Shown: positions 3,418-47,155 of the stretch, one piece after another | Position numbering within the stretch: the first letter of the stretch is position 1 | Layout of the letters: each line of letters begins with the position of its first letter | Assembly (NCBI GenBank): GCA_029565735.1 | Contig: JAKQNO010000057.1 | Location: forward strand, 5,481-69,480 | Direction of reading: 5' to 3' | DNA length: 64,000 nt | DNA from: a bacterium | GTDB lineage: Bacteria > Oederibacteriota > PGYV01 | Notes under the pieces: generated by a model | The model's input: only the letters and a program-made list of their open reading frames with translations | Databases searched by the model: none | Told to the model about the DNA's origin: nothing | Translations under genes and position numbers: made by a program

Positions 3418-4062
3418 ATGAGCAACACGCAGAACAATAAAAAGATTACAGCCAAAGGGCGCGAAACAAAAGATAAAATATTCAGGACAGCCGTTGAATT
3501 ATTTTCAAAAAACGGATTTTACGGGGTTTCCATAAGGGATATAACATCCGCTATAAATATTAAAGAAAGCTCCCTTTACCATCACTATTTAAGCAAAGAA
3601 GACCTTATTAATGACATATATTTTTATTTTGCGGAAAATATAGACGCAACAAGATTAACCGACGCGCAGATCGATTCAATACTTGCGGAACACGACGGCC
3701 ATTCCCTTCTGCAAAAATGCCTTCAGGAATTCAGGGGCGTTATGGAACAGCCTTTGATGGCAATGGCATGGCGCATTATTTCAATGCAGCAATACAGGGA
3801 TGATAAAGCCTTTGAAATTCTTTCCATTGATTTTCACAGGATGCGTATTAAGTACTATGAAAATATTTTCAGGACGCTTGTAAAAAGAAGAATTATTAAA
3901 GCCCTTGATCCCAAGCTTCTTGCCTTTGAATACTTCTATACCCTGATCGGAATGCTGACAGAATACAATGTACTTAAATTTCTTAAAAGAAAAACACAGG
4001 TAATGGAAAATCTTATGAACGAACACATTGAATTTTTCTGGAATAAGATTAAGAACAGCTGA
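3418..4062 (+). CDS. TetR/AcrR family transcriptional regulator
   Basis: N-terminal HTH: TKDKIFRTAVELFSKNGFYGVSIRDIT...SLYHHYLSKEDL. Confidence 0.92.
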   Translation: MSNTQNNKKITAKGRETKDKIFRTAVELFSKNGFYGVSIRDITSAINIKESSLYHHYLSKEDLINDIYFYFAENIDATRLTDAQIDSILAEHDGHSLLQKCLQEFRGVMEQPLMAMAWRIISMQQYRDDKAFEILSIDFHRMRIKYYENIFRTLVKRRIIKALDPKLLAFEYFYTLIGMLTEYNVLKFLKRKTQVMENLMNEHIEFFWNKIKNS

Positions 4063-4136
4063 CAGTTTACAACTGACAACTGACAACTTACAGCTGCTAC
4101 CTGCTACTTGTTACCTGTCACTTATCCCTTGTTAAC
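4060..4136. repeat. Degenerate heptamer tandem array (about 11 in-phase units)
   Basis: tgacagt ttacaac tgacaac tgacaac ttacagc tgctacc tgctact tgttacc tgtcact tatccct tgttaac; fills the gap between two convergent stop codons. Confidence 0.85.
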
Positions 4137-5383: not shown

Positions 5384-6820
5384 TTATTTTAGAATACTGC
5401 TTTTTATATAATTATCAATTCCCTTTGCGGCTTTTTTTCCGGCTCCCATTGCCGCTATAACGGTTGAAGAACCTGTGGAAATATCGCCGCCGGCAAATAT
5501 CCCCGGAAGCGAAGTCGCGCCTGTTTCCGCGTCAGCTTCTATATATCCCCATTTATTAAGTTTTAACCCGGCAACATCAGACGTCATAAGCTTGTTGGCT
5601 TTTGTTCCAAGCGCCGATATAACAGTATCAACCTCTATTTCAAATTCAGAGCCCGGTACTGTTACGGGTTTTCTTCTGCCGGATTCATCCGGCTCGCCAA
5701 GCTGCATTTTAATACACTTTATGGATTTTACCCAGCCCTGCTCATTTTCAATTACCGCGACAGGGTTGGTAAGAAGTTTAAAAATAACGCCTTCTTCTTT
5801 TGCGCGTTCTTTTTCTTCTGTCCTTGCGGGCATTTCGTCTTCAGAGCGCCTGTATATGATGTAAACATCTTCAACACCCGGCAGCCTGCGCGACCATCTT
5901 GCAGCATCCATTGCCACGTTGCCGGCGCCCACAACAGCCACTTTTTTACCAAGTTTTGCAGGCGTGTCGTATTCCGGAAACCTGTAAGCTTTCATGGCAT
6001 TTATCCTTGTTAAAAATTCATTAGCGGAATACACGCCTTTTGCCTGCTCCCCCGGTATTCCAAGAAACATTGGTGTTCCTGCGCCTACGCCGATAAAAAG
6101 CGCTTTATATCCAAGTTTAAATATGTCATCCACGGTATATGATTTTCCCACCGCCACATTAAGCTTAAATTCAACGCCAAGGCTTTTTAAATAATCAACT
6201 TCCCTTTGAACTATTGTCTTGGGCAGGCGGAATTCCGGAATACCGTAAATTAAAACGCCGCCTGCAAGGTGCATGGCTTCAAAAACTACGGGTGAATAAC
6301 CCATTTTCGCAAGATCCCCGGCAACTGTAAGGCCTGCCGGTCCCGCGCCTGCGACAGCAATTTTAACCGGTTTGCCGTCTTTATCCTTAATTTTTTCAAC
6401 TGAAACAGCCGCAGGTTTTGAATTCTGAGCTTCCCAGTCCGCGGCAAAACGTTCCAGCGCGCCTATGTTGATGGGATTTTTTGTCTTTTGCATTACGCAT
6501 GCAAGCTCACACTGTTCTTCCTGAGGGCATACCCTTCCGCATACGGCAGGCAGGCTTGAATCTATTTTTATGGTATCAATGGCAGCTTTATAATTTTTTT
6601 CCGCAATGTGGCCGATGAATTTTTTAATATTGATATTTACAGGGCATCCCGCAATGCATGTTGGATTTTTGCACTGAAGGCAGCGGCTTGCTTCTTCAAT
6701 TGCTTCTTCTTCATTATATCCAAAAGGCACTTCGTTAAAATTCTTTATCCTGTCCGCGGATTCCTGCTGCCTGACTTTAATACGCGGCCTTTTTGTTTTT
6801 GGAATATTATTTTCTGCCAT
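5384..6820 (-). CDS. nfnB: NfnB/SudA-like flavoprotein (GltD-like subunit of electron-bifurcating transhydrogenase)
   Basis: EASRCLQC...CIAGCPV, GRVCPQEEQCE, GAGPAGL and GAGNVAMDAAR; start moved to MAENN at 6820; paired with an nfnA-like gene. Confidence 0.8.
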   Translation of the reverse strand: MAENNIPKTKRPRIKVRQQESADRIKNFNEVPFGYNEEEAIEEASRCLQCKNPTCIAGCPVNINIKKFIGHIAEKNYKAAIDTIKIDSSLPAVCGRVCPQEEQCELACVMQKTKNPINIGALERFAADWEAQNSKPAAVSVEKIKDKDGKPVKIAVAGAGPAGLTVAGDLAKMGYSPVVFEAMHLAGGVLIYGIPEFRLPKTIVQREVDYLKSLGVEFKLNVAVGKSYTVDDIFKLGYKALFIGVGAGTPMFLGIPGEQAKGVYSANEFLTRINAMKAYRFPEYDTPAKLGKKVAVVGAGNVAMDAARWSRRLPGVEDVYIIYRRSEDEMPARTEEKERAKEEGVIFKLLTNPVAVIENEQGWVKSIKCIKMQLGEPDESGRRKPVTVPGSEFEIEVDTVISALGTKANKLMTSDVAGLKLNKWGYIEADAETGATSLPGIFAGGDISTGSSTVIAAMGAGKKAAKGIDNYIKSSILK

Positions 6821-9235: not shown

Positions 9236-9247
9236 GAAAAGTTTATG

Positions 9248-9317
9248 GGCGGAAGGCAGAAGGTCGGAAGGTCGGTGGGTCGGTGGGTCGGAGGGTCGGA
9301 GGGTCGGAGAGTCAGAC
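9248..9317 (+). repeat. Octamer tandem array GGTCGG(A/T)(A/G) x6 plus degenerate flanks
   Basis: ggcggaa ggcagaa ggtcggaa ggtcggtg ggtcggtg ggtcggag ggtcggag ggtcggag agtcagac. Confidence 0.9.
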
Positions 9318-9328
9318 ATTTCGTTTTG

Positions 9329-9491
9329 GTAGCCGCGGGCTTTAGCCCGGGGCAGTTGATTTAGTTTTGATTTTGAAGGTTTTGTTCCGGTAGACGCAGG
9401 TCTTCAGTCCGCAAGATTCTGATATGGTTTGCAAATCATTAAATAATCATTCCAAAAAAACCAACTGCCGCGCCTTAAAAGGTGCTCCTGC
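9329..9491. repeat. Cluster of GTAG-led REP-like palindromes
   Basis: GTAGCCGCGGGCTTTAGCCCG (9329), GTAGACGCAGGTCTTCAGTCCGC (9390) and an inverted copy GCAGGAGCACCTTTTAAGGCGCGGC (9467-9491, minus). Confidence 0.55.
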
Positions 9492-9554
9492 CAAACCTTT
9501 ATTTAATATTTCGCTTATGCTTAATTGCTTATCTGCTTATAGTTTATGCTTTAA

Positions 9555-24660: not shown

Positions 24661-24700
24661 ATAGGACATATAGGACTTATAGGACATATTTGACTTATAT
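24661..24700 (+). repeat. Nonamer tandem array ATAGGAC(A/T)T
   Basis: ataggacat ataggactt ataggacat atttgactt atat. Confidence 0.8.
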
Positions 24701-34202: not shown

Positions 34203-35756
34203 GTGGCAATTGTGTTAAGCAAAGTTAAATCCGCATCCATTTTGGGTATTGACGCTTATGAAGTGGAAGTTGAAACAGATATGACTTTTGGAATACCCGG
34301 TTTTTCCATCGTGGGCCTTCCCGACGTTTCCGTCAAAGAAAGCAAAGACAGGGTTAAATCCGCCATTACAAATTCAATGATAGAGTTCCCTCCAAACCAG
34401 AAAATTACGCTAAATTTATCCCCTGCTGACCGCAAAAAAGAAGGGCCTTCGTTTGACCTGCCCATAGCCATAGGCATTTTAGCCGCCTGCGGCACTTTAA
34501 ATACCGCTAAACTTGAAAGTTATATGATTACAGGCGAGCTGTCGCTTGACGGCTCCATAAACTCCGTTAAAGGCGCTTTGTCAATGTCGCTTCTGGCAAA
34601 GAACCTTGGCTATAAAGGCATAATAGTGCCTTTTGCCAATGCTGATGAAGCAGCTGTGGTTGAAGGCATTGATGTGCTTGCGGTGAAACACTTCAGGCAG
34701 GTTTTTGATTTTCTAAACGGCGAAATCACGCTTGACCCCCACGCGATTGATATTACCGAAGTGTTTTCCAGGGCTTCGGTTTACCACGTTGATTTTTCAG
34801 AGGTTAAAGGCCAGCAGCATGTTAAGCGCGCGATGGAAATAGCAGCCGCGGGCGGGCATAATATTATCCTTATCGGGCCGCCGGGGTCCGGCAAGACAAT
34901 GCTTGCGCGCAGATTCCCCACCATTCTGCCGGAAATGAACCTTGCAGAAGCAATTGAAACCACAAAAATTCACAGTGTGTCAGGATATATGCGCGAAAAG
35001 ACCGCGCTTATCGCAACGCGCCCTTTCCGCTCGCCGCACCATACAATTTCCGACGCGGGCTTAATCGGCGGCGGTGCGGTTCCGCGCCCGGGTGAGGTAT
35101 CATTGTCCCATAACGGGGTCTTGTTTCTGGATGAACTGCCGGAGTTCAACAGAAACGTGCTGGAAGTTTTAAGACAGCCGCTGGAAGACGGCCACGTTAC
35201 AATTTCACGCGCGGCAATTTCAATTACATATCCGGCAAGGTTTGTCCTGTTTGCAGCAATGAACCCCTGCCCCTGCGGTTATTCCACGCACCCGACAAAA
35301 AGCTGTTCATGCACGCCGGCTCAGCGGGAAAAATATATGTCTAAAATATCCGGCCCGCTTCTGGACAGGATAGATATTCATGTGGAAGTGCCGGTTGTGG
35401 AATATAACGACCTTGCATCAAAAGCAGAGGCGGAAACTTCGGCGTCAATACGCAAGCGCGTAAACACCGCGCGCAAAACGCAGGAAAAAAGGTTTGAAAA
35501 ATCAGGGGTTTTCTTTAACGCGCATATGGGGCCGCGGCACACAAGGAAATTCTGCCAGCTGGACAATGATTCGCAGGCATTATTAAAAACAGCAATTGAA
35601 AATCTTGGTTTGTCCGCCCGCGCGTATGACCGCGTGTTAAAAGTATCACGCACAATAGCGGATTTGGAAGGCGCGGAAAATATCACTTCCACCCACATTG
35701 CGGAGGCAATTCAGTACAGAAGCCTGGACAGAGAGCATTGGAAAGTGGGGATATAA
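34203..35756 (+). CDS. comM: YifB/ComM family Mg-chelatase-like AAA+ ATPase
   Basis: [46 protein letters not shown] and LSARAYDR. Confidence 0.93.
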
Positions 35757-36313
35757 TGGGATTAGACAACAATAAAATCATACTTCCCCACGGCGGGTAT
35801 CAGAAGTTAAAATCATTTCAGATGTCGGAGATTGTTTATGACGCAACTGTTAAATTTTGTGAAAGATTTGTAAGTAAGTTTTCACGGACAACAGACCAGA
35901 TGATACAGGCAGCCAGAAGCGGCAGGCAGAATATCGCCGAAGGCAGCATGGCGTCGGCTGTATCCAAAGAAACAGAGATTAAGCTGATTGGCGTTGCACG
36001 CGCCAGCCTTGAAGAATTGCTGTTGGATTACCAGGACTATCTGCGCCAGAACGGAATGATACTGTGGGATAAGGCCAACACCGCAGCTTTACAGGTGCGC
36101 GCCCTGGGAAGCGCGCCTGATAGGTCCTATAAGTCCTATAGGACCTATATTGAAGGCACTGCAGAGACCGCTGCCAACACCGTTATCTGCCTTATTCACC
36201 AGACAAACTACCTGCTTGACCGGCAGTTAAAACAATTAGAAGAAGCCTTTGTCAAACACGGCGGATTAAGGGAAAGAATGTATCAGGCAAGGCAAAAAGA
36301 GAGACAGAGATAG
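35756..36313 (+). CDS. Four-helix-bundle protein (Avd/23S-IVP-like) with 'suffix' domain
   Basis: GGYQKLKSFQ, RTTDQMIQAARSGRQNIAEG, VARASLEELLLDYQD and AANTVICLIHQTNYLLDRQL...GGLRERM; ATG overlaps the comM stop (TAATG). Confidence 0.85.
   Translation: MGLDNNKIILPHGGYQKLKSFQMSEIVYDATVKFCERFVSKFSRTTDQMIQAARSGRQNIAEGSMASAVSKETEIKLIGVARASLEELLLDYQDYLRQNGMILWDKANTAALQVRALGSAPDRSYKSYRTYIEGTAETAANTVICLIHQTNYLLDRQLKQLEEAFVKHGGLRERMYQARQKERQR
36120..36150 (+). repeat. In-frame nonamer repeat inside the four-helix-bundle gene
   Basis: ataggtcct ataagtcct ataggacct atat, encoding DRSYKSYRTY. Confidence 0.8.
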
Positions 36314-36319
36314 AAATTT

Positions 36320-37654
36320 TTACTTACTTTCTTTTCTTTTAATAACCATTCCTGACCATATAATTCCCACCGCGCCTGCTGCAAGGTCAGTTAGCAGCCT
36401 TCCTGTAAATATACCGTTTAAATGAAACAATTTTTCGCCTATTATTGAAAGCGGTATAAGTAAAATTACTATTCTTACAATATCAAGAACTGAAGCCTGT
36501 ACCGGCGCCTGCATACCAAGCAGGCAGAATCCCGCGTAGCGGTGTATTTCAAGCATTCCATAACCAGCACAGGTGATCTTTATGTAAAGGACAAGGACGT
36601 TTATGACATTTGGATCAGATGAAAACAAGACAGCCATGGGCCTGCTGAAAATAAAGAATAATGCCGCTATAAACAGGCCATAAATCGCGGCAAAAGACAT
36701 GGTAATTACACGGGCTTCTTTTATCCTGTCTGTCCTTCCCGCGCCGTAATTTTGCGCCACAAAAGGTATTAAGGACATGCCGACTGTCATTGGTATCATA
36801 AAAGCAAACATTTCTATCCTGCCGGCAACGCCCGCGGCCGCAACCGCCTCATCGCCGTATCCTGCCACAAGTTTGGTTATAACAGCAGCTGATACCGGTG
36901 TCATAATCATTCCCAAAGAACTTGGAACCGCGAATTTAATAATCTTAAGCCAGGATTCCCTGATTTCATTTAACCTGAGTACAATCGGAACAATAATCTT
37001 AAGCCTGACAAACAGTATAAATAAAGCGCCGGTAAGGGTAAACGACTGCGAAATAATAGTCGCTATGGCCGCTCCTTTTATTCCAAGGGCGGGCATTCCA
37101 AACTTCCCAAAAATAAGGCCTAAATCAAAAAAAATGTTTACCACTGTTCCGCCCACCATAAGCGCGCTTATAGCCCTGGTGTTGCCTGTACTCATAATGA
37201 TATCGCCAAGTATCATATGCACAACCATTATTACGGAACCCAGATACCATATATTCATGTATTCAAGGGCTAAAGAAAGGGTGTTGCCGGAAGCCCCCAG
37301 TTTTGCAAAAAGCATCTTGGCGGTTAAAATGCCGGCCAATGTCATTAGAAGCGCCGTTATAACCGCGAAAATCATGGAATGAATTACAAGTTTTGAAGTA
37401 TTTGCGGTGTCTTTTGCGCCTATAAGGCCGGCGGTTAAAGACATTACCCCGGTGCCAATGCCGCGTATTATAAATGTCAGCAGCATAACGACAGGAAAAG
37501 CAAATGATATGGCGGCAAGCGAATCGGTTCCAAGGCGGGATACAAACCACACATTGGTAAGGTTGTACATATTTATCGCGAACGTGCCGGCTAACATCGG
37601 CAGAGCCATTTTTACAATGGTAATACCTGTATTCTCTTTTATCAGTCTGGACAT
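36320..37654 (-). CDS. MATE family efflux transporter
   Basis: About 12 TM segments; MALPM, GIKGAAIAT and QNYGAG. Confidence 0.9.
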   Translation of the reverse strand: MSRLIKENTGITIVKMALPMLAGTFAINMYNLTNVWFVSRLGTDSLAAISFAFPVVMLLTFIIRGIGTGVMSLTAGLIGAKDTANTSKLVIHSMIFAVITALLMTLAGILTAKMLFAKLGASGNTLSLALEYMNIWYLGSVIMVVHMILGDIIMSTGNTRAISALMVGGTVVNIFFDLGLIFGKFGMPALGIKGAAIATIISQSFTLTGALFILFVRLKIIVPIVLRLNEIRESWLKIIKFAVPSSLGMIMTPVSAAVITKLVAGYGDEAVAAAGVAGRIEMFAFMIPMTVGMSLIPFVAQNYGAGRTDRIKEARVITMSFAAIYGLFIAALFFIFSRPMAVLFSSDPNVINVLVLYIKITCAGYGMLEIHRYAGFCLLGMQAPVQASVLDIVRIVILLIPLSIIGEKLFHLNGIFTGRLLTDLAAGAVGIIWSGMVIKRKESK

Positions 37655-37686
37655 AAATAATTATTCCTTCTGCCGGCAGGCCTGCA

Positions 37687-37723
37687 ATTCGGCGTAATAT
37701 TAAGTAAATATATTACGCCGAAT
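37687..37723. repeat. Perfect 14-bp inverted repeat with 9-bp spacer
   Basis: ATTCGGCGTAATAT-TAAGTAAAT-ATATTACGCCGAAT. Confidence 0.8.
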
Positions 37724-37828
37724 AATTATATTTGTGAAGTAAAATTAAAGTTTCTGTTTAAAGCCGTAACCAGCCATAAGAGATTAAAACCTCTTTGAAT
37801 AATTGATATAATTGATTTCACGAATCAA

Positions 37829-37945
37829 AAAAGATCCCGGATAATAACGGATTTAGAGGGCACGGAGGATATTGCATCCACTTATATTGCGGAAACCATT
37901 CAATACAGAAGCCTATACAGAGAGAATTGGAAAGCGGGAATATAA
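37829..37945 (+). pseudogene. Diverged duplicate of the last 38 codons plus stop of comM
   Basis: KRSRIITDLEGTEDIASTYIAETIQYRSLYRENWKAGI* versus com[39 protein letters not shown]; 91/117 nt identical by hand count, ungapped. Confidence 0.9.
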
Positions 37946-37947
37946 AG

Positions 37948-38335
37948 TTGCAAGTTGCAGGTGACAAGTTACAGCTAAATGAAAAAGATCAGTTAAAAAA
38001 CAGGACAAAAAAATTTGCAGTTGATGTAATAAAAATTATTAAAAACTTCCCTAAAAATCATATTTATAAATCGTTAGGCAATCAACTTTTAAGAAGCGCA
38101 ACATCTGTATCTGCTGATTATCGTACTGCTAAAAAAAACACGTTCCACTGCTGAATTTATCGCAAAACCGGGCATCGTTGCTGAAGAAATTGATGAAAGC
38201 AAGCATTGGTTTGAATTATTAGCTGAATCAGCGTTGATAATAGAGTCAAGCGTACCGGTTCTGTATAAAGAAGCTGATGAAATAGCAGCCATGATATACG
38301 AATCAATTAAAACAACAAAACGCAATCGCTATTAA
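37948..38335 (+). pseudogene. Frameshifted four-helix-bundle (Avd/23S-IVP-like) gene
   Basis: NEKDQLKNRTKKFAVDVI...QLLRSATSVSADYRTAKK, then after skipping one base of the A8 run (38131-38138) TRSTAEFIAKPGIVAEEIDESKHWFELL...KEADEIAAMI; no clear start codon. Confidence 0.85.
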
Positions 38336-38407
38336 CTTTAAGTCGTCGGTTATTCAGCGTCTTATGACTGTAAGTTGACAATTGTTACCTGTTACCTCGC
38401 TAAAAAC

Positions 38408-41400
38408 TCACCCTATTACCACTTCCACCGTGTGTTCTATTCTGTCGTCAATAAGCGGGATGGATAAATCCTGCCGAGCGTTGCCGTCAACAGTTACCGA
38501 CATCACTTTATCTTCTGCCCCTGACCTTTGCAGTAATATGTGATAAAAAGTTTCCCGAAAACGGTAATGAACCTTAAATGACCGCCACTCTATTGGAAGG
38601 CACGGTTCAAAATAAAGCCGGTCAACTTTAAGCTGAATTCCCAGCAGATTATTAACAATAAGCTGATACATCCACGAAGCAGACCCCGTATACCATGTCC
38701 AACCGCCCCGGCCTGTGTTAGATTCAACCCCGTACACATCAGCAGCCATAACAAACGGTTCCACCTTATATATGGCGGATTTTTCCGCCGTATCGCTGTG
38801 ACTGATGGGGTTTATTAAATTGAACAGTTCCCACGCCCGCGCTCTGTCTTTTAACGCGGCAAATGCCATTACAGACCAGACAGCCGCGTGTGTATACTGT
38901 CCGCCGTTTTCCCTTACGCCCGGCACATATCCTTTTATATAACCCGGATTATTTAAAGTTTTATCAAAAGGCGGGGTAAAAAGTTTTATCAGCATTCCCT
39001 GCCTGTCAACAAGCAGCTTATCCACGCTTTCCATTGCCTCTTTTGCCCTTGCCGGATCTGCCGCACCGGAAATAACAGCCCATGACTGCGGAATAGAATC
39101 TATACGGCACTCTGTATTTAAAGAAGAACCCAGCGGCTCTCCATTATCAAAATAAGCCCGCAGGTACCAGTTTCCATCCCATGCATTTTTATCTATATTG
39201 TTAGAAAGTGCTGCAGCTTCTTTTAAACATTCATCCGAAAAAGTTTCATCCCCATGCTGTTTTGCCATCTGAGACATGGACATAAGAACCTTATGTAGAA
39301 AGAATGCCAGCCAGACACTTTCGCCTTTTCCGTCTTTACCAACCAGATTCATACCGTCATTCCAGTCGCCGCTGCCAATAAGCGGAAGTCCGTGAATGCC
39401 GTAATTTAATGCGTGCCTGACAGCCGCAGCACAATGTTCGTAAAGGGTTCCCTGCTTTTCCGACAACCCGGGCATGCCGTAATATGACTCTTCGCCGGGA
39501 TTAACCGGCGGCCCTTCCAGAAAACGCACTTTTTCATTCAATACTCCGGTGTCGCCTATTTGTGCAACATATAAAGAAGTTACCAAAGGCAGCCATAAAT
39601 AATCATCAGAACATCTGGTTCTGACTCCCCTTCCTGAAGGCGGATGCCACCAGTGCTGCACATCTCCTTCTACAAACTGATGGGCGGCAAAAGTAAGCAA
39701 CTGCTGCCTTATCATTTCCGGATGGGAATGCATAAGCGCCATGACATCCTGCAGCTGATCCCTGAAACCATACGCGCCTCCGGACTGGTAATAACCGCTG
39801 CGCCCCCACAAACGGCAGCTTATTACCTGATACTGCAGCCAGCCATTCACAAGAAAATTTAATGAATTATCCGGCGTTTCAACATAAATTACACCAAGGC
39901 TTCTTTTCCAGTGTTCCCAGACATTTTCAAGTTCTTTATGCACCAACGCCGGCCCGTTATAACGCTGAAGTATTTCACGCGCTTCGTCCGGGCTTTTGCC
40001 CGAGCCAAATAAAAATACCGTTTCTTTTTCTTCATTATCGTTTAATTCAAATTTAACCTGAATACTGACACACGGGTCAAATCCTGCGCCGGTTTTACCC
40101 GAAAGCCTGTCTTTATACATGGCTGCAGGCGAACCCATAGACCCGTTTCTTCCCAAAAATTCATTCCTGTCGCCGGTAACAAACCTTGCGGTATCGCTTG
40201 TATCAAGAAATACAACCCTGTCAGAGAATTCCTTATTGTAGTGGTTATAGGCAAACATAGCCCCGCTTTTTGAATCAATCTCCGTTGTAATATGCATGTG
40301 ATATTTATCCCTGTGCGCCCCCATAACAAGTTCATTATACGAAGCTACTGACAGGCTGCGTTTACGCCCTGAATAGTTTTTTATTTTCAGGACACTAAAC
40401 TTTACCGGATGCTCAGGCGAAACAAAAACTGTCAGTTCTGATTCTATCCCGTTTTCCCTGTGCTGAAAAATACTGTAACCAAAACCATGCCGTGATATAT
40501 AGCCTGTTTTTCCTGACGCCGGAAGCGGTGTAGGCGACCAAAAACGTCCGGATTCATCATCCCTGATATAGACAGCTTCCCCGCAGGCGTCTGTAACAGG
40601 GTCATTTTTCCAAGGTGTCAGACGAAACTCGTGGGCATTCTCGCTCCAGGTGTAAGCGCTTCCGCTTTCCGATATAACAGTGCCAAAATCTTTATTCGCC
40701 AGCACATTCGCCCATGGCGCCGGCGTTCTTTTGCCGGGCGCTGTATTTATGACATATTCCCTGCCGTCAGGGGTAAACCCGCCCAGGCCGTTAAAATATT
40801 CAAGGTCTTTCCGCTCGCCAATACCCTCATCCTCTTTCTCAACTCCAAACCTTTTTATGACATTCAGCAGCGGGCGCTGCGGCCTTATATGAGACATACG
40901 TTCAATCTGTTCCGCAAGCGTTCCGCCCCTGTCCGTGATTATTATCCTGGCAACGGCCTGCATAAGCACTTTATCTTCTTCAGACATCTGATCCGCGCGC
41001 CTTAAAAATATGCCGCCGGGCTGGTTTGACATACCGGCGCCGTTTTTTGATATCAGGCTGTTTATTTTTTCGCTCATATCATCCCTATAAACCGAATGAT
41101 CTTCATTCCAGATTACAAGGTCCACCCTTAACCCCTTCATACGCCAGTATGAATGCGCCTGCACAAGGCGGTCAATTATATCAATATTTTCCGGATCTTC
41201 CACCCTTACAAGAACTATGGGCAGGTCTCCGGAAATGCTGTAGCCCCATAAATCCGGCTGCCCCCTTAGATTTTTTTTAATTATTGTTGCCGCAGCGCGC
41301 CACGCCGGATTTGAATAAACAATAGCGCCGGCAAGGCGCCCATAAAGCTGGGCATCAGCTTCCGTGGCGTTTATCTGCTGAAGAGCAACCTGCCCGTGTG

Positions 41401-44400
41401 TCCAGGACAGATTAAAAACCCTGTCCGCAAGATTGCGGTCCCTGTATTTTTCTATCAGTTTTTTCGCATCTTCCATACTGCCGCAGACAGCCGTAACGTA
41501 ATCAACAACAGCCGATTCCTGGGAATCAAGTTCCACGCTGCCGCGTATAGAAATTATGGGGTCAAGCACCGCGCCTTCACTGTCTGAAAGGACGCCGTTA
41601 TCATGCATAGCCGCCGGATCTGCCTTGGTTCCGCAGCGCCCTATAAATTTGCTCCGGTCAGTTTCGTATGAAGCAGGCGCGGTGGAATTACCGTGGACTG
41701 CCATAAGGTGCAATATAAAAGGGTACGATTCATCCTCAGAGCGCGGCCTTCTGGCACATATTATCGCCTGATAAGGTTTAATAATTTCCGTCCGGATAAA
41801 CAAATTGCTAAAAGCGCTGTGCGCCTGATCCGCTTCCGGATAATTAAGCACCGCTTCAGCGTAACTGGTAAATTCCAGGTGACGTTTATCGCGCGACCTG
41901 TTGGTTATGGTAATCCTGCGCAGTTCCGCGTCATCTTCCGGAGAAACGACAATTTCCATATGCGTATCTATGCTGTAATCGCGCCTTTTAAACTCCGCGC
42001 GCGATTGCGAAAAAACCGCTTCATAATTTCTGGATTTTTTAAGCGTCGGCTGATGGGCGGCAGACCAGAAATCCCCGGTCTGCTTATCCCTGATGTACAC
42101 AAACGCCCCCTCGTTATCCAGCGCCGCGTCTTCACGCCATCTTGTTACCGCGGTATTCTTCCATCTGCTGTAACCTCCGCCGGCATTTGTCACCATAACG
42201 CTGTATTTACCGTTTGATAAAAGGTGTATTTCCGGCGTAGGAGTATCGGGATTTGTAAAGACGCGCAACAGCGCCTCCCTTTCTTCCACCTGCCTGAGCG
42301 GCCCTGTAATTTCCGTGTCATAAAGAAACGGTACATCCGCCGGAATCTTTTCCTGCAGCAGAAGTTCTGTGGCTTTAAACATCGGATCGGCCAAAAAACG
42401 CCTCTGCATGGGCCTGTCTAAAAGGACGTAGGCAAAAGACAAAAATGACATTCCCTGATGATGTGCCATGTAAGATTTTATCACCGCATAATTTTCATCC
42501 GTGGCAAGCCGGGCCGGCGTGTAATCAATTGCCTCATAAAAACCGTATTCCCCTTCGAACCCGTTATCTTTCATAAGTTCCAGATTCTCACAGGCTTTTT
42601 CGGGCTCTACCATTAAAGCCATAGCAGACGCGTATGGCGCGATAACAAGATCTTCTGATAATCCGCGCTTAAATCCTGAATCCGGCACACCAAAAGAACG
42701 GTACTGATAGGCCATTGTAGTATCAACTTTGTTATAACCGGATTCCGATATGCCCCACGGCACTTCATTGCGCCTTGCGTAATCTATCTGTCTCATTACT
42801 ATGGCTTTATAAGTCCTGTTAAGAAGCGTGCCTTCATAATCCGGCATTATAAGAAGGGGCATCAGGTATTCAAACATGGAGCCTCCCCACGATACAAGCA
42901 CCGGATCTCCGCCGCGCTTTGACAGCAGCCTTCCAAGCATAAACCAGTGTTCCTGGGGCACGCTTCCCTGAGCTATAGCGGTATAACTGGCCAGGCGGGA
43001 TTCTGACGCCAGAAGGTCATAGCATGAAGCATCAGTTTTTCTTTCACCCGCGTTATATCCAATATGAAAGAGATGTTTGGACTTATTGTAAAGAAAATCA
43101 TATTCAACATCTGTCATTTCGCCGCACAAAAGTGAAAGTTCCTCAATTAAATCTATTCTCTCGCACGCCCTTGCCCCCGCGGTTGTAATTGCATTTTTAA
43201 ACTGCAACAGCCACTCTGTTTCGGCTGCGTTATTCCCGTTAAATTCAAGTATCTGATTTATAGAGGGAGTTAACCTTAATTCAAGCCGCGCCGCGTCATC
43301 AAGCACAGGTATCGCGTCAAGGCGCCTTAATTCTTCCCTTAAAAAATTAAGAACATCCTTCTGTTTGCCGTCATCTTTATCCCACATTCCCGGAATTTCA
43401 GCAGGAAGCAGTATCCATGGCGCCATATAGGCCATGTCTTCAAGCAGGTGATAACACTGCCTTTCAAAAGCCATACCCCATTTTTTCGTTTTGACAAGGC
43501 CCAAAAATTCAAGATCAATAATCATTTTTGAACTTTCTGCGGATAAATGCAGTAAAAGCATATGTAATTCCTGAAGTGTTTCAGGTGCAGATGATAGTTT
43601 ATCACCCATCCTGCTGATTCTTGCCTTTACCCTTTCCGATATTTCCGCGGCTGCGGCAGCCATATTTTTAACCGGTTCTTTGTAACTATCTTTAATCACG
43701 TTAAGGGTATCCCACAGGCCGTCAATTATTTTTAATGATATAATTTTTTCCCCTCGCATTTCAGAAAGGCCCGAACGCAGAACCAGTAAATTGCCTATAA
43801 GGTTACCGCTGTCAACGGAAGAAACATATAATGGAAGCAGCGGTTTTAAAGATTCTGTGCTGTACCAGTTATAAAAATGGCCCCTGTATTTCTCCATCGC
43901 GCTCATGGTAACAAGTGTCTTTTTGACCCTGTCAAGCGCCTCCCCCATTGATATATATCCAAAATCATATGCCGTGAGATTGGATAAAAGAGAAAGCCCA
44001 ATATTGGTGGGAGATGTCCTGCGCGCGGCCACACCCAGCGGTTCTTCCTGAAAATTATCCGGCGGCAGGTAATTGTCCCGGGCGGTTACAAACTCCTCAA
44101 AAAATCTCCAGGTCTTCCTTGCGCACATTCTTAAAAAACTTTTCTCAGATGAGGATAATACATCGCGGCGCAGAGAAGCCGGCCTGCTGATAATATAAGC
44201 AATTAAAGGAGAAACCAACCAGGTAATAATTATTATAACCGCCGGCAGGTCGGATTTTATAAATCCGGATACCGCGCACAACAGCGCCGCAGACGGAGCT
44301 GCAATCATTTTTCTTATATAATCAACCGCGGTCATATTTCCCACAAGTTCAGTTTCCGCGAAAGTATTCCATTCCAGAAGTTTTCTGCGCGTTATGTACT

Positions 44401-47155
44401 TCCGCCAAAAAGTGGTTACAATGGCCGCGACATTATAATATGCCTCATAAACTATAAATACAAATGAAAGCAGAAACTGCAGGACGCGGTCAGCCAGCGA
44501 AACATACAGCGCCGACATATGCGATTCTATCGTTATGCCTTCCGGTTTTCTTCCCATATCATAAAACAGTTTAATTGCTATCGGCAGCCCTGAAAACAGT
44601 ATTATAAGAAGCGTCCACGGCCATGAATTTTCAAGCAGAAACCAGCCGGATAAAAACGCCAGAAAAACAGATAAAGGCACAAGGCTGCGCCTTAAATTAT
44701 CCAATATTTTCCACTGTGACAAAAACGACAGCGGATTTTTAGATTTTTTCCCGTCAGGACCGGGAACCCTTGAAAAAAGCCATTGTGTTATCTGCCAGTC
44801 GCCCCGTATCCAGCGCCGCCTGCGGCTTACATCCTTAAGATATCCTGTCGGGTACTTCTCATGAAGTTCAACCTCTGTCACCAAAGCACAGCGGGCATAA
44901 CACCCTTCCAGCATATCATGGCTTAGTATAAGATTTTCAGGCAGCCGGTCTTTTAAACAATTTTCAAAAGCATCAACATCATAAAGCCCTTTTCCTATAA
45001 ATGAACCTTCAAAAAACAGGTCCTGATACACATCCGAAACTGCTTTTGTATAAGGGTCAATTCCCGTTTCCCCTCCGAAAATTTTTACAAAAAGAGACGG
45101 ATTTTCCCCGGGATAACCAGCTTCCACCCTAGGCTGAAGTATGCCGTAACCGGATACCACCCGTTTTTTATTTTCATCATATACCGGCTGATTAAGCGGA
45201 TGGCATATAATTGATACCAGATTTTTAACCGCGTCCCTTGGCATCCGGGTATCCGTGTCTAGTGTAATTACATACTTTACATCCTGCAGCCGCTGCACAT
45301 CGCCTTTTATTAAGCTGAATTTATCCTTCCCGCCGCCCCTAAGAAGCATATTTAACTCCGAAAGCTTACCTCTTTTTCTTTCATATGCCATCCAAAGCTT
45401 TTCACGCGGATTCCATTTACGGTTTCTGTGAAAAAGACAGAATATTTCGCTGTCCCGGCCCGGATATTTGTTATTTAATTTTTCTATGCCTTCGGCCACA
45501 CAGGATAACAGTTCCTCATCTTCCGGCATAGTTTCCTGCAGCGCATCCTTAAAATCAGTCAGCAGCGCATAATTTATCCTGGGGTCTTTATTTGCAAGGT
45601 AACTGACTTCCAGATTTTCTATAAGCGATTCAATCCCCCGTGTGCTTCCAAGCAACGTGGGAACAACCACAAGCGTATGCGCCCCGGGCGCTATCGATTT
45701 TGAAAAGTCCATTTTAGGCAGCGTTTTAGGCCTTACAATAATTGTGGATACCCAGTTCACGACTGAAACAACTGTCTGACTTACCGCAAAAAAAACAGGT
45801 ACTAAAAGTAAAATATGATTAAGCCAGCCCTGCAGCCCCAGCTTCTGCGCCAGAAATAAGGCCGCAGCGGATACGGCACACGTGAAAAAGACAATTGAAC
45901 CGATATATAAAGGCATTGATAATACGGTATTCTTTGCCTGCAGCAGGCTGCCGGCGGGAAATCTTATTTTCAGAACTTTATAAAGCTGTTCCAGCCCTTT
46001 ATCAATAAGGTAATAACCAACATGCGCAGTCCTGAATTTCCCGCTTTCGGCAAGTTTCAAGACCCGTGCCGCCACAGATTCTTCAGAAAGCCCGCTTTTT
46101 GCCGCAAGTTTTTCAATGACATGGCGGTATGCGTCACGGGTTTCAAAAGACATGGCGCCGTAAACTTCGCATGGATCCTTTCTTAAAACTGCTTCAACCG
46201 CACTTAAAGTTTCAACAAAATCATGCCAGTTTGTCCCTTCAAGAAGCCTTAAGCTTTCTATCGTATTTGCTATAGAAACCTGATTGGATGCCTGTTTACG
46301 GCTTGTTGAACGTATCAGCCTGTCCACTGTTTCGCCCTGCTCTGACAGTTTCTTCTCCAGCCAGTTTAAAGGCAGGTCAATGTTAGCGCTCTGCCCCTGA
46401 AGACGCCTTACAAATTCTGACACAAAAGAGTCCGACATAGGCGGATTGTCCTTTGCCATCGCCGCTATTTCGTGAATATAATTATCGGTATCTTTAACCG
46501 CCACTTCCAGAATTCTGTTTGCCCAGTAATCCGCCTTATCCCTGTCTTCCTGCGTCGCCATCATATAAACAGAAACACGCCTTAAATTTTCTATAAGCGC
46601 AAGCCGAAGCATAATAGGAATAGCCCATAACTCACCAAGTTTCAGTTTTTTTACTCTCTGATAGGATGTAATAAAAGCGGTTAAACCGGCGACATCAATA
46701 CGCCCGTCGCCATGCGATACTATTTCCATGGCAATATCATAAACCCTTGGATAACCTGACATAGGCCCCGAAGACAGCCCCGGAAGTTCGCGGCTGTAAA
46801 CTTTTGGAAAGAATTTCTGCGCAAGCCGTATCTGTTCTTCTATAAGGTAATAATTATCAAGTATCCATTCTCCTGCAGGAGTAATGGTATTTTTGGCCTT
46901 AGCGGCTTCATTAAGCATTTTATTGGTACGCAGCAGTATTTGTTCGTTATCTTTCAGTCGTATAAGGAGTTTTTCCCTGTTTTTTTTCAGGCTTACTGTA
47001 TGCTTTTCTGCCAAAAATTTTGCATGCAGTTCAAACTGATCCATGCTGAAAAGTTCTGCCCTTAGCGGATTTTCATTTATTATTTTTTTCGCCGGCAGGT
47101 TTCTTGTAAAAAACTCCTTTATTTTTCGGGAAAAATCCGGAAAATTTCTTATCAT
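38408..47155 (-). CDS. Cyclic beta-1,2-glucan synthase-like protein (Cgs/NdvB: GT84 region plus C-terminal GH94-like phosphorylase)
   Basis: 2915 aa; EWILDNYY, WMAYERKRGKL, ILSHDMLEG, RWIRGDWQ, TM block, SWGGSMFEYLMP, QSGGAYGFRDQLQD, GDWNDGMN and ENGGQYTHAA. Confidence 0.88.
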   Translation of the reverse strand: MIRNFPDFSRKIKEFFTRNLPAKKIINENPLRAELFSMDQFELHAKFLAEKHTVSLKKNREKLLIRLKDNEQILLRTNKMLNEAAKAKNTITPAGEWILDNYYLIEEQIRLAQKFFPKVYSRELPGLSSGPMSGYPRVYDIAMEIVSHGDGRIDVAGLTAFITSYQRVKKLKLGELWAIPIMLRLALIENLRRVSVYMMATQEDRDKADYWANRILEVAVKDTDNYIHEIAAMAKDNPPMSDSFVSEFVRRLQGQSANIDLPLNWLEKKLSEQGETVDRLIRSTSRKQASNQVSIANTIESLRLLEGTNWHDFVETLSAVEAVLRKDPCEVYGAMSFETRDAYRHVIEKLAAKSGLSEESVAARVLKLAESGKFRTAHVGYYLIDKGLEQLYKVLKIRFPAGSLLQAKNTVLSMPLYIGSIVFFTCAVSAAALFLAQKLGLQGWLNHILLLVPVFFAVSQTVVSVVNWVSTIIVRPKTLPKMDFSKSIAPGAHTLVVVPTLLGSTRGIESLIENLEVSYLANKDPRINYALLTDFKDALQETMPEDEELLSCVAEGIEKLNNKYPGRDSEIFCLFHRNRKWNPREKLWMAYERKRGKLSELNMLLRGGGKDKFSLIKGDVQRLQDVKYVITLDTDTRMPRDAVKNLVSIICHPLNQPVYDENKKRVVSGYGILQPRVEAGYPGENPSLFVKIFGGETGIDPYTKAVSDVYQDLFFEGSFIGKGLYDVDAFENCLKDRLPENLILSHDMLEGCYARCALVTEVELHEKYPTGYLKDVSRRRRWIRGDWQITQWLFSRVPGPDGKKSKNPLSFLSQWKILDNLRRSLVPLSVFLAFLSGWFLLENSWPWTLLIILFSGLPIAIKLFYDMGRKPEGITIESHMSALYVSLADRVLQFLLSFVFIVYEAYYNVAAIVTTFWRKYITRRKLLEWNTFAETELVGNMTAVDYIRKMIAAPSAALLCAVSGFIKSDLPAVIIIITWLVSPLIAYIISRPASLRRDVLSSSEKSFLRMCARKTWRFFEEFVTARDNYLPPDNFQEEPLGVAARRTSPTNIGLSLLSNLTAYDFGYISMGEALDRVKKTLVTMSAMEKYRGHFYNWYSTESLKPLLPLYVSSVDSGNLIGNLLVLRSGLSEMRGEKIISLKIIDGLWDTLNVIKDSYKEPVKNMAAAAAEISERVKARISRMGDKLSSAPETLQELHMLLLHLSAESSKMIIDLEFLGLVKTKKWGMAFERQCYHLLEDMAYMAPWILLPAEIPGMWDKDDGKQKDVLNFLREELRRLDAIPVLDDAARLELRLTPSINQILEFNGNNAAETEWLLQFKNAITTAGARACERIDLIEELSLLCGEMTDVEYDFLYNKSKHLFHIGYNAGERKTDASCYDLLASESRLASYTAIAQGSVPQEHWFMLGRLLSKRGGDPVLVSWGGSMFEYLMPLLIMPDYEGTLLNRTYKAIVMRQIDYARRNEVPWGISESGYNKVDTTMAYQYRSFGVPDSGFKRGLSEDLVIAPYASAMALMVEPEKACENLELMKDNGFEGEYGFYEAIDYTPARLATDENYAVIKSYMAHHQGMSFLSFAYVLLDRPMQRRFLADPMFKATELLLQEKIPADVPFLYDTEITGPLRQVEEREALLRVFTNPDTPTPEIHLLSNGKYSVMVTNAGGGYSRWKNTAVTRWREDAALDNEGAFVYIRDKQTGDFWSAAHQPTLKKSRNYEAVFSQSRAEFKRRDYSIDTHMEIVVSPEDDAELRRITITNRSRDKRHLEFTSYAEAVLNYPEADQAHSAFSNLFIRTEIIKPYQAIICARRPRSEDESYPFILHLMAVHGNSTAPASYETDRSKFIGRCGTKADPAAMHDNGVLSDSEGAVLDPIISIRGSVELDSQESAVVDYVTAVCGSMEDAKKLIEKYRDRNLADRVFNLSWTHGQVALQQINATEADAQLYGRLAGAIVYSNPAWRAAATIIKKNLRGQPDLWGYSISGDLPIVLVRVEDPENIDIIDRLVQAHSYWRMKGLRVDLVIWNEDHSVYRDDMSEKINSLISKNGAGMSNQPGGIFLRRADQMSEEDKVLMQAVARIIITDRGGTLAEQIERMSHIRPQRPLLNVIKRFGVEKEDEGIGERKDLEYFNGLGGFTPDGREYVINTAPGKRTPAPWANVLANKDFGTVISESGSAYTWSENAHEFRLTPWKNDPVTDACGEAVYIRDDESGRFWSPTPLPASGKTGYISRHGFGYSIFQHRENGIESELTVFVSPEHPVKFSVLKIKNYSGRKRSLSVASYNELVMGAHRDKYHMHITTEIDSKSGAMFAYNHYNKEFSDRVVFLDTSDTARFVTGDRNEFLGRNGSMGSPAAMYKDRLSGKTGAGFDPCVSIQVKFELNDNEEKETVFLFGSGKSPDEAREILQRYNGPALVHKELENVWEHWKRSLGVIYVETPDNSLNFLVNGWLQYQVISCRLWGRSGYYQSGGAYGFRDQLQDVMALMHSHPEMIRQQLLTFAAHQFVEGDVQHWWHPPSGRGVRTRCSDDYLWLPLVTSLYVAQIGDTGVLNEKVRFLEGPPVNPGEESYYGMPGLSEKQGTLYEHCAAAVRHALNYGIHGLPLIGSGDWNDGMNLVGKDGKGESVWLAFFLHKVLMSMSQMAKQHGDETFSDECLKEAAALSNNIDKNAWDGNWYLRAYFDNGEPLGSSLNTECRIDSIPQSWAVISGAADPARAKEAMESVDKLLVDRQGMLIKLFTPPFDKTLNNPGYIKGYVPGVRENGGQYTHAAVWSVMAFAALKDRARAWELFNLINPISHSDTAEKSAIYKVEPFVMAADVYGVESNTGRGGWTWYTGSASWMYQLIVNNLLGIQLKVDRLYFEPCLPIEWRSFKVHYRFRETFYHILLQRSGAEDKVMSVTVDGNARQDLSIPLIDDRIEHTVEVVIG

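Follow-up and report, generated by a model that had tools for sequence, protein, structure and literature searches.

We report that a small gene of the TIGR02436/PF05635 four-helix-bundle family, enclosed by inverted arrays of 7-nucleotide (nt) repeats in an Oederibacteriota genome (GTDB PGYV01; assembly GCA_029565735.1, contig JAKQNO010000057.1, forward-strand positions 5,481 to 69,480, a stretch of 64,000 nt referred to here as the window), appears to be a worn, vertically inherited and decaying copy of a widespread cassette. In this cassette the gene and its heptamer hairpin resemble an intervening sequence (IVS) of 23S rRNA, and expression may occur through read-through transcription and an RNase III-type stem. 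Taken as a whole this is the reading we favour, and we place it about midway between doubt and conviction. The original prediction, made from the letters of the window, had described gene and flanks as a candidate repeat-bounded mobile or RNA-processing unit with no recognisable transposase.

The cassette occupies positions 37948 to 38396 on the plus strand. Its left arm consists of four heptamers of the A(A/G)GTnnC type (TTGCAAG TTGCAGG TGACAAG TTACAGC; 37948-37975) that follow directly after the stop codon of a comM fragment. Its right arm consists of four degenerate heptamers of the reverse complementary type (TGTAAGT TGACAAT TGTTACC TGTTACC; 38369-38396) and was recognised in the sequence, with Tandem Repeats Finder, in an inverted-pair search and in the alignment with a sister species. 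The heptamers originally quoted for the two flanks are present letter for letter. Tandem Repeats Finder reports the left array at 37945-37970 (period 7, 3.7 copies, 73% matches, score 31) and the right array at 38383-38397 (2.1 copies, score 30), and these are two of 36 rows of comparable strength in the window, in the lowest range that the program reports. The arms (24 nt, 71% complementary) form the longest among 26 inverted pairs of like quality in the same 1 kb. In the predicted RNA fold of 37940-38405 the gene is closed by an 11-bp helix (37957-37967 paired with 38382-38392; nine Watson-Crick and two G-U pairs) that occurs in the minimum-energy as well as the centroid structure.

The gene between the arms is a pseudogene of the TIGR02436/PF05635 ("23S rRNA intervening-sequence protein") family. 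Its N-terminal half runs from 37948 to a premature stop at 38154 and its C-terminal half lies in a shifted frame at 38138-38335 (stop codon 38333-38335), both on the plus strand. Both halves exceed the TIGR02436 cut-off of 24 (33.6 bits over profile positions 2-45 and 35.6 bits over positions 49-109), in agreement with the four-helix-bundle identity first proposed, and each half alone is below the PF05635 cut-off of 33.8 (27.5 and 23.4 bits). The orthologue in the sister species G002 (G000 denotes the window's genome; G001 and G002 are its congeners) reaches 89.8 bits for TIGR02436 and 66.9 bits for PF05635. An intact frame of about 110-130 amino acids (aa) is not present, owing to one extra A: a run of eight A at 38131-38138 with a +1 frameshift corresponds to seven A and an open frame in G002. 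The run of eight is identical in contigs of three further public sequencing runs (X2, X3 and X5, which may partly stem from one campaign), which argues that the frameshift is not an error of a single assembly. The sole in-frame start codon is the TTG at 37948, inside the first heptamer (G002 likewise has TTG), and no Shine-Dalgarno sequence of the kind found in relatives precedes it. RNA contigs of run X17 match exactly at 38145-38295 and 38368-38518, a weak hint of transcription; public RNA runs were taken as contigs, in which ends, joints and strand are not visible and uncovered parts are uninformative. The G002 protein matches the solved entry 2rld_A (E 8.5e-16), which has five chains, and the cassette protein may be a pentameric four-helix bundle. 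In profile searches the protein matches were limited to four-helix-bundle families, with no known catalytic domain.

At the same site in G002 an open gene stands between the identical four left units and a right array of ten ACTTGTA units, and the stem score of 43 exceeds the 99th percentile (26) of mismatched flanks. It is this comparison, i.e. the same left array with a 10-unit complementary right array, that establishes the window pair. Stem scores here and below are local scores on the flanks; RNA duplex energy between flanks was tried and replaced, its background being too high (mismatched median -61.5). Since G000 and G002 share the site, the cassette is, as far as the alignment tells, common to both by descent and not newly inserted here. 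The window copy is, by the same alignment, a decayed version, with the frameshift and a right arm eroded to four degenerate units that leave the 11-bp helix. Nor is the gene conserved at this locus without repeats, an outcome considered at the outset, as G002 keeps gene and repeats together.

The order of genes behind comM differs among the three congeners. In G002 it is comM, the cassette and a gene with GH94 domains; in G001 it is comM, a 191-aa four-helix-bundle gene with a suffix domain and the GH94 gene, with no arrays at the junction; and in G000 it is comM, the 191-aa gene, a minus-strand MATE efflux gene, the duplicated 127-nt comM 3' end, the cassette and the GH94 gene. The MATE gene is missing at the corresponding locus in both G001 and G002. 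In G001 the cassette is missing along with it, within one larger ≈2.1-kb difference (window 36326 to 38412), so its absence there represents no clean excision. With the site shared by G000 and G002, the mobility once proposed for the window copy finds no footing. Two histories would account for the directly repeated comM end: an insertion through recombination inside comM, or distinct deletions starting from an ancestor that resembled G000. The flanking genes of the cassettes present only in G001 or G002 (L017, L038, L042, L041 and L036) are not in G000, and the genus therefore offers no clean presence/absence test. As a separate observation, the comM 3' end (window 34203-38410) is a variable spot with three gene sets behind comM in the three congeners.

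The flanks of other family members were scored to see how far the design extends within the phylum. PF05635 matches were found in 28 of 41 genomes, with 127 matches listed. From these, 73 genes were taken: 35 delivered loci (three of which fall on the two family genes of the window), the gene of the cassette, all further G001 and G002 matches above the cut-off, and the next best-scoring rows in table order, skipping G035:C188 (internal stop) and G004:C61 and G004:C144 (contig ends). Six loci with short flanks or N (L007, L034, L022, L040, L055 and L057) were dropped, which left 67. The control consisted of 4242 mismatched upstream/downstream flank pairs from different genomes (median 16, 99th percentile 26). 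Complementary flanks above the 99th percentile were present at 30 of the 67 loci and above the 95th at 38, against 8 and 10, respectively, in a direct-repeat control. Oriented repeat arms accordingly recur among other members of the family, the lack of which had been named as the finding that would speak against the unit.

A search with a seven-protein alignment of one subfamily, for which the following figures hold, extended the comparison across phyla. One genome per species was scanned and the best 80 of at least 588 relatives were kept, from Acidobacteriota, Planctomycetota, Bacteroidota, Chloroflexota, Nitrospirota, Verrucomicrobiota, Proteobacteria, Deinococcota and others; cultured isolates among the listed carriers are Flavobacterium akiainvivens, Hymenobacter lutimineralis, Mariprofundus ferrooxydans PV-1 and Calidithermus chliarophilus, among others. 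Among 78 usable loci 56 scored above the 95th and 20 above the 99th percentile of mismatched pairs, a control that is inflated because many loci share units. Arrays with a period of 6-13 cover 29% of the first 100 nt upstream and 28% downstream of the gene, falling to 6% and 4% in the next 100 nt and to ≈1% beyond 200 nt; they are found on both sides at 51 of the 80 loci, on one side at 26 and on neither at 3. The period is 7 in 130 of 152 gene-adjacent arrays, and arrays on either side have a median of 4.6 copies (quartiles 4.0-6.0 upstream, 4.3-5.0 downstream). On the sense strand the upstream arrays are G-rich (G 0.30, C 0.14) and the downstream arrays their mirror image. The upstream neighbour is co-directional with the gene at 70 loci and opposite at 6 (downstream, 55 and 20), with strands taken from a crude stop-to-stop open reading frame (ORF) call, and the upstream co-orientation argues for read-through transcription. 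Moreover, the heptamer unit tracks the protein: mean protein identity declines from 0.61 at unit distance 0 to 0.52 at distances of at least 4, and the Mantel correlation between unit and protein is -0.32, with none of 500 permutations as low, although such co-variation would also be expected from co-inheritance alone. Of the original proposal it is thus the unit of gene and inverted heptamers that stands, as a recurrent cassette, and not the mobility of the window copy. Chance as the source of the whole pattern is ruled out by the flank scores within the phylum and across phyla and by the positions of the arrays.

Different states of one junction were compared among Acidobacteriota. The membrane-fusion/RND pump gene junction (MFP-RND junction), which holds a cassette in L090, was searched in 41 genomes of one acidobacterial family; 19 loci were delivered, 16 of them with both flanks. 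The cassette with its gene is present at one of these (L182), two abutting inverted arrays with a loop of ≈8-20 nt at 12, and a plain spacer of 20-37 nt at 3. When two loci from unpublished genomes are left out (L170, hairpin only; L179, plain spacer), the numbers are 1, 11 and 2 of 14. At the hairpin-only sites the unit differs in nearly every genome (e.g. GTTTCGA, GTTTTCA, GAGTAAT, GCAGTGA, GGTTCAT and GTTTCAG). The series shows turnover without direction. A 7-nt stretch occurs both in the short loop of the hairpin-only locus L171 and in the leader of the filled cassette L090, which weakly favours gene loss over gene gain. The comparison of orthologous loci called for initially has in this way yielded filled, hairpin-only and bare states; it did not give their direction, nor a clean excision within the genus.

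Hairpins and arrays that lack the gene are abundant in the window's genome. In G000 we counted 400 arrays (period 6-13, at least 2.8 copies), of which 223 belong to seven unit families, each flanking a four-helix-bundle paralogue in G000, G001 or G002; paralogues inside one genome carry different units. The window itself contains a gene-less hairpin of the same heptamer family as the window arm at 4055-4125, found with Tandem Repeats Finder, with left and right arrays abutting between convergent genes. The alignment with the G002 orthologue runs through this stretch uninterrupted (1170 against 1150 nt), so that a gene would not fit there in G002. Together with the broken frame and the eroded right arm, these hundreds of gene-less arrays are the points on which the original prediction was silent.

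The density of arrays was compared among eight genomes of one phylum, partly sampled and related to one another so that they are not independent, with a filter of period 7-8 and at least 3.5 copies. G000 (whole genome; six PF05635 rows, five genes) has 133 arrays in 2.47 Mb, i.e. 54 per Mb, and G019 and G025 (eight PF05635 matches each) have 46 arrays in 400 kb and 18 in 291 kb, i.e. 115 and 62 per Mb, respectively. G034, with four PF05635 matches and only non-bracketed, weak or broken copies, has 2 arrays in 400 kb. Without any PF05635 match, G003 (same family as G000) and G027 have none in 400 kb each, G005 none in 65 kb, and G028 four in 400 kb, whose units contain nothing but G and C. After shuffling, the G027, G003, G019 and G034 samples gave 0, 0, 0 and 1 arrays. 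A strict-alignment search for inverted partners of all G000 arrays (30 of 398 scoring at least 15, against 10 for random places) was not used because the arms are too degenerate for that scoring. In addition, many G000 contigs start or end in arrays (C5, C29, C30, C43, C147, C150, C151 and C163); arrays probably break short-read assemblies and are hence under-counted.

The cassette would thus consist of a gene of ≈120 aa from the TIGR02436/PF05635 family between two convergent arrays of a 7-nt unit. An intact copy would have ≈4.6 units (≈32 nt) per arm, with complementary arms, and would lie right behind the stop codon of a co-directional host gene. It would have no promoter of its own and would be transcribed by read-through from the upstream gene. 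In the read-through transcript the arms could pair to a stem of ≈30 bp, akin to the 23S rRNA IVS stem that is cut by RNase III, and processing of the stem could separate a small mRNA from the host message. Hairpins without a gene, found at comparable sites, may derive from the cassette. Co-orientation, the position behind the stop codon and arms of ≈32 nt make read-through with an RNase III-type stem the most economical model.

A number of observations weigh against this model. The stem score of the window copy is 17 against a control median of 16, and the whole fold is not stabler than shuffled sequence (z -0.27; 38 of 100 shuffles fold equally well). The repeats and their inverted orientation are real, yet the window pair alone is not beyond chance, and the proposed pairing of the flanks is upheld by the predicted 11-bp helix while its strength is at background. 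These values, along with the 26 comparable inverted pairs in the same 1 kb, are what two weak and unrelated slippage repeats around a pseudogene would give; such a coincidence is nevertheless highly improbable, given that G002 has the same left array with a clean 10-unit complementary right array and that 30 of 67 relatives sampled within the phylum and 56 of 78 sampled across phyla show the design. Bracketing arms, moreover, belong to part of the family only, as proteins starting with ENLxVYQK score above the 99th percentile in 1 of 20 cases and the others in 29 of 47. Mismatches within the arms are of G-U type in 136 and of A-C type in 112 cases (67 cross-phylum stems), and in 86 and 89 cases in 33 stems of the phylum. 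With no G-U bias on the sense strand, selection on sense RNA pairing is not demonstrated, and a DNA-level or protein-binding symmetry would fit the mismatch pattern equally. The crude calling of neighbour strands tempers the argument from co-orientation, an RNase III cut within an operon should harm the downstream gene, and in Coxiella the excised RNA is labile and S23p seemingly not made (PMC4990558). Finally, RNA processing alone leaves unexplained both the tandem-heptamer form of the arms and the abundance of gene-less hairpins in gene-holding genomes only.

Heptamer periodicity and gene-dependent orphan hairpins favour instead a DNA-level partnership like that of REPINs and RAYTs, in which the protein would partner the heptamer hairpins in trans and the gene-less hairpins would be non-autonomous copies. 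Every paralogue would recognise a unit of its own, with each subunit of a five-part ring taking one, and would preserve or propagate hairpins of that unit; the flanking arms would serve it as binding sites. We regard this as possible but tend to doubt it. Array density follows the gene (54, 115 and 62 per Mb, against 0, 0, 0 and 4 arrays where PF05635 matches are lacking) and is low in G034 (2 arrays in 400 kb), where copies are non-bracketed, weak or broken; 223 of the 400 G000 arrays fall into paralogue-flanking unit families, paralogues of one genome have different units, and unit tracks protein identity (r -0.32; 0 of 500 permutations). The ≈4.6 units per arm stand beside the five chains of the related entry 2rld, the sense-strand G-U bias is absent, and the same reasoning tied RAYTs to REPINs (PMC3116915). 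However, the protein has PF05635/TIGR02436 matches only and no known catalytic domain, no excision or insertion event was seen, the density comparison covers eight partly sampled and non-independent genomes of one phylum, co-inheritance also yields unit-protein co-variation, and an element acting purely on DNA would not be expected to show an upstream co-orientation of 70 versus 6. The models do not exclude each other. A still broader view, which we put forward tentatively and with more doubt than belief, is that four-helix-bundle proteins (IVP/S23p/Avd-like) and heptamer hairpins form one two-part system, a counterpart of RAYT and REPIN whose ring-forming nucleic-acid binder has no known catalytic domain and would take about five units per arm, and of which 23S rRNA IVSs, the orphan heptamers of Xanthomonas, cyanobacteria and others, and the operon cassettes would be different faces. 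The hairpins could also belong to the host and come first: placed at 3' ends or between cistrons, they would stabilise mRNA in the manner of REPs or act as terminators, and would arise by slippage and quasi-palindrome correction, with the gene a guest that lands in hairpin tips as at 23S rRNA helix tips. This we think unlikely. Gene-less hairpins do occupy conserved sites (4055-4125 in both G000 and G002), 12 of 16 MFP-RND junctions hold a hairpin without the gene and nearly always with a different unit, and 70-75 convergent GGGAATC pairs occur in Xanthomonas (PMC4692102). But gene-less genomes should then keep hairpins, which the four sampled do not, gene and unit co-vary, no insertion mechanism is known, and the 7-nt match between the L171 loop and the L090 leader hints weakly at gene loss and not gain. 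The IVS-like cassette with read-through and stem processing stays our preferred reading.

Upstream of the cassette lies the full-length comM/yifB-type gene for a Mg-chelatase-like ATPase (34203-35756, plus strand; an ORF with Pfam Mg_chelatase, ChlI and Mg_chelatase_C matches, E 4e-98), the stop of which is overlapped by the start of the second four-helix-bundle gene (35738-36313, plus strand; 191 aa with a C-terminal suffix domain; TIGR04258 85.3 bits, TIGR02436 30.7 bits). The latter has no flanking arrays, and its G001 orthologue also lies 3' of comM; it contains an in-frame 9-nt tandem repeat of the ATAGGTCCT type at 36120-36149, and a similar 9-mer array, ATAGGACAT, is intergenic at 24661-24699. 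The MATE gene follows at 36320-37654 on the minus strand (Pfam MatE, E 3e-42), and then the 127-nt comM fragment at 37819-37945 on the plus strand, identified by BLAST and alignment with G002, which ends in IQYRSLYRENWKAGI and the stop codon and corresponds in G002 to the end of the intact comM. To the right of the cassette is the convergent gene of 2915 aa with GH94 supersandwich and catalytic domains (Pfam; 38408-47155, minus strand). As originally stated, no transposase was found in or beside the cassette (neighbouring ORFs and Pfam matches). Of the features of an insertion sequence or MITE, inverted arms are present. An Rfam scan of the window gave two tRNAs and nothing else.

Further arrays and hairpins were seen in the window and beyond. 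The units of the gene-less hairpin at 4055-4125 are first of the ACAACTG type and then of the CTACCTG type, and the G001 contig ends ≈100 nt past its match, at about this place. In a composite intergenic region at 9240-9545 the two sides come from different families: 6.5 octamers of GGTCGGAG stand on the left, GCTTAT-type arrays on the right. A GGTAG(A/C)CGC...GGG hairpin motif occurs twice between them and is also found next to arrays in C128, C73 and L018. At G000:C97:22370-23470 (L160), and also at C73:2660-2890 (L161), three tandem units of ≈320 nt with a conserved GC-rich core are each bordered by octamer, TATGGGA and AATTTTCG arrays; Rfam gave no family for these repeat units, only chance miRNA-like hits. 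At the ENLxVYQK loci L021, L065, L073, L074, L069, L059, L061, L068 and L075 both inverted arrays, judged by eye, lie upstream of the start codon, and the leader hairpin (upstream 200 nt) is often placed around a GCGGTC motif. The copy number of the gene ranges from 1 to 18 among five Acidobacteriota genomes (G041-G045).

The association would tie together two long-standing unknowns, a very large protein family that has solved structures but no assigned function, and the over-represented heptamer repeats of bacteria. If the link holds, the rRNA intervening sequences would be one landing site of a general hairpin cassette, and binding of the protein to the arrays, cutting of the stem and decay of arrays upon gene loss become simple to test. 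For annotators and CRISPR-array finders, short-period arrays beside these genes represent a separate class. The window copy itself is modest, a pseudogene with an eroded arm that is useful mainly as a stage of decay. In a literature search that did not extend to subscription journals and supplements, we found no report linking this gene family with flanking heptamer arrays.

Among known systems, the DGR (diversity-generating retroelement) accessory protein Avd has a homologous four-helix-bundle fold (PMC10053308), but unlike a DGR the cassette has no reverse transcriptase among its neighbours (comM, the 191-aa gene, MATE and GH94). An identity with Avd was rejected, as the matches of the G002 orthologue to DivGenRetAVD and bAvd are weak (DivGenRetAVD 19.5 bits, far below the cut-off of 80); template and variable repeats were not searched for. 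Genes of the four-helix-bundle family have been found inside cas loci (PMC3936711) and are listed among array-associated proteins (PMC10910872); a relation to CRISPR was also rejected, with nothing at the window that resembles spacer-bearing arrays. The TAACTGA repeats of Beggiatoaceae, Cyanobacteria and Bacteroidetes are likewise abundant intergenic heptamers, with two to six units per array and a scattered occurrence among phyla, but they are described as direct repeats just upstream of start codons with one inverted case, and the sections of the account that we draw on do not mention the four-helix-bundle gene (PMC4679880). Closer in form are the GGGAATC pairs of Xanthomonas and the GGGGA(T/C)T repeats of Nostoc, which are intergenic tandem heptamers, often convergent on opposite strands, that vary in length between close relatives and for which the function is given as unknown; in contrast to the cassette, that account, in the parts consulted, names no associated gene and discusses G-quadruplexes (PMC4692102).

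The REPIN/RAYT system shares with the cassette a gene flanked by a repeat family that is dispersed over the genome as hairpins, with each paralogue having its own repeat family; the RAYT is a single-copy gene and REPINs are hairpin-forming inverted doublets (PMC3116915). It differs in that RAYTs are relatives of HUH/Y1 (IS200-like) transposases with known chemistry and that REPs are single palindromes, not tandem heptamers (PMC3116915). The cassette may work in a similar way but is not a member, having no HUH/Y1 transposase match. Finally, the closest documented counterpart is the ORF-bearing IVS of 23S rRNA. The cassette is not inserted in rRNA but has a comM fragment and a GH94 gene as its neighbours, its arms are tandem heptamers, and RNase III cutting has been demonstrated for the rRNA case alone (PMC4990558); the G000 23S gene (C28:41860-44872) contains no heptamer array with at least three copies, and nothing therefore connects the cassette to a true IVS in G000. 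Of a long terminal stem the window copy offers no more than an 11-bp core helix, with a stem score at background; the G002 orthologue and most sampled relatives have complementary arms of ≈30 nt. In Coxiella burnetii (helix 45) the S23p ORF is enclosed by a 28-bp terminal stem that RNase III cuts. There, and in Leptospira and others, a small ORF of the same family (S23p/PF05635) lies inside terminal inverted repeats that form a stem of ≈28-30 bp, likewise without a transposase, and the IVS has been viewed as a selfish element of unknown origin (PMC4990558).

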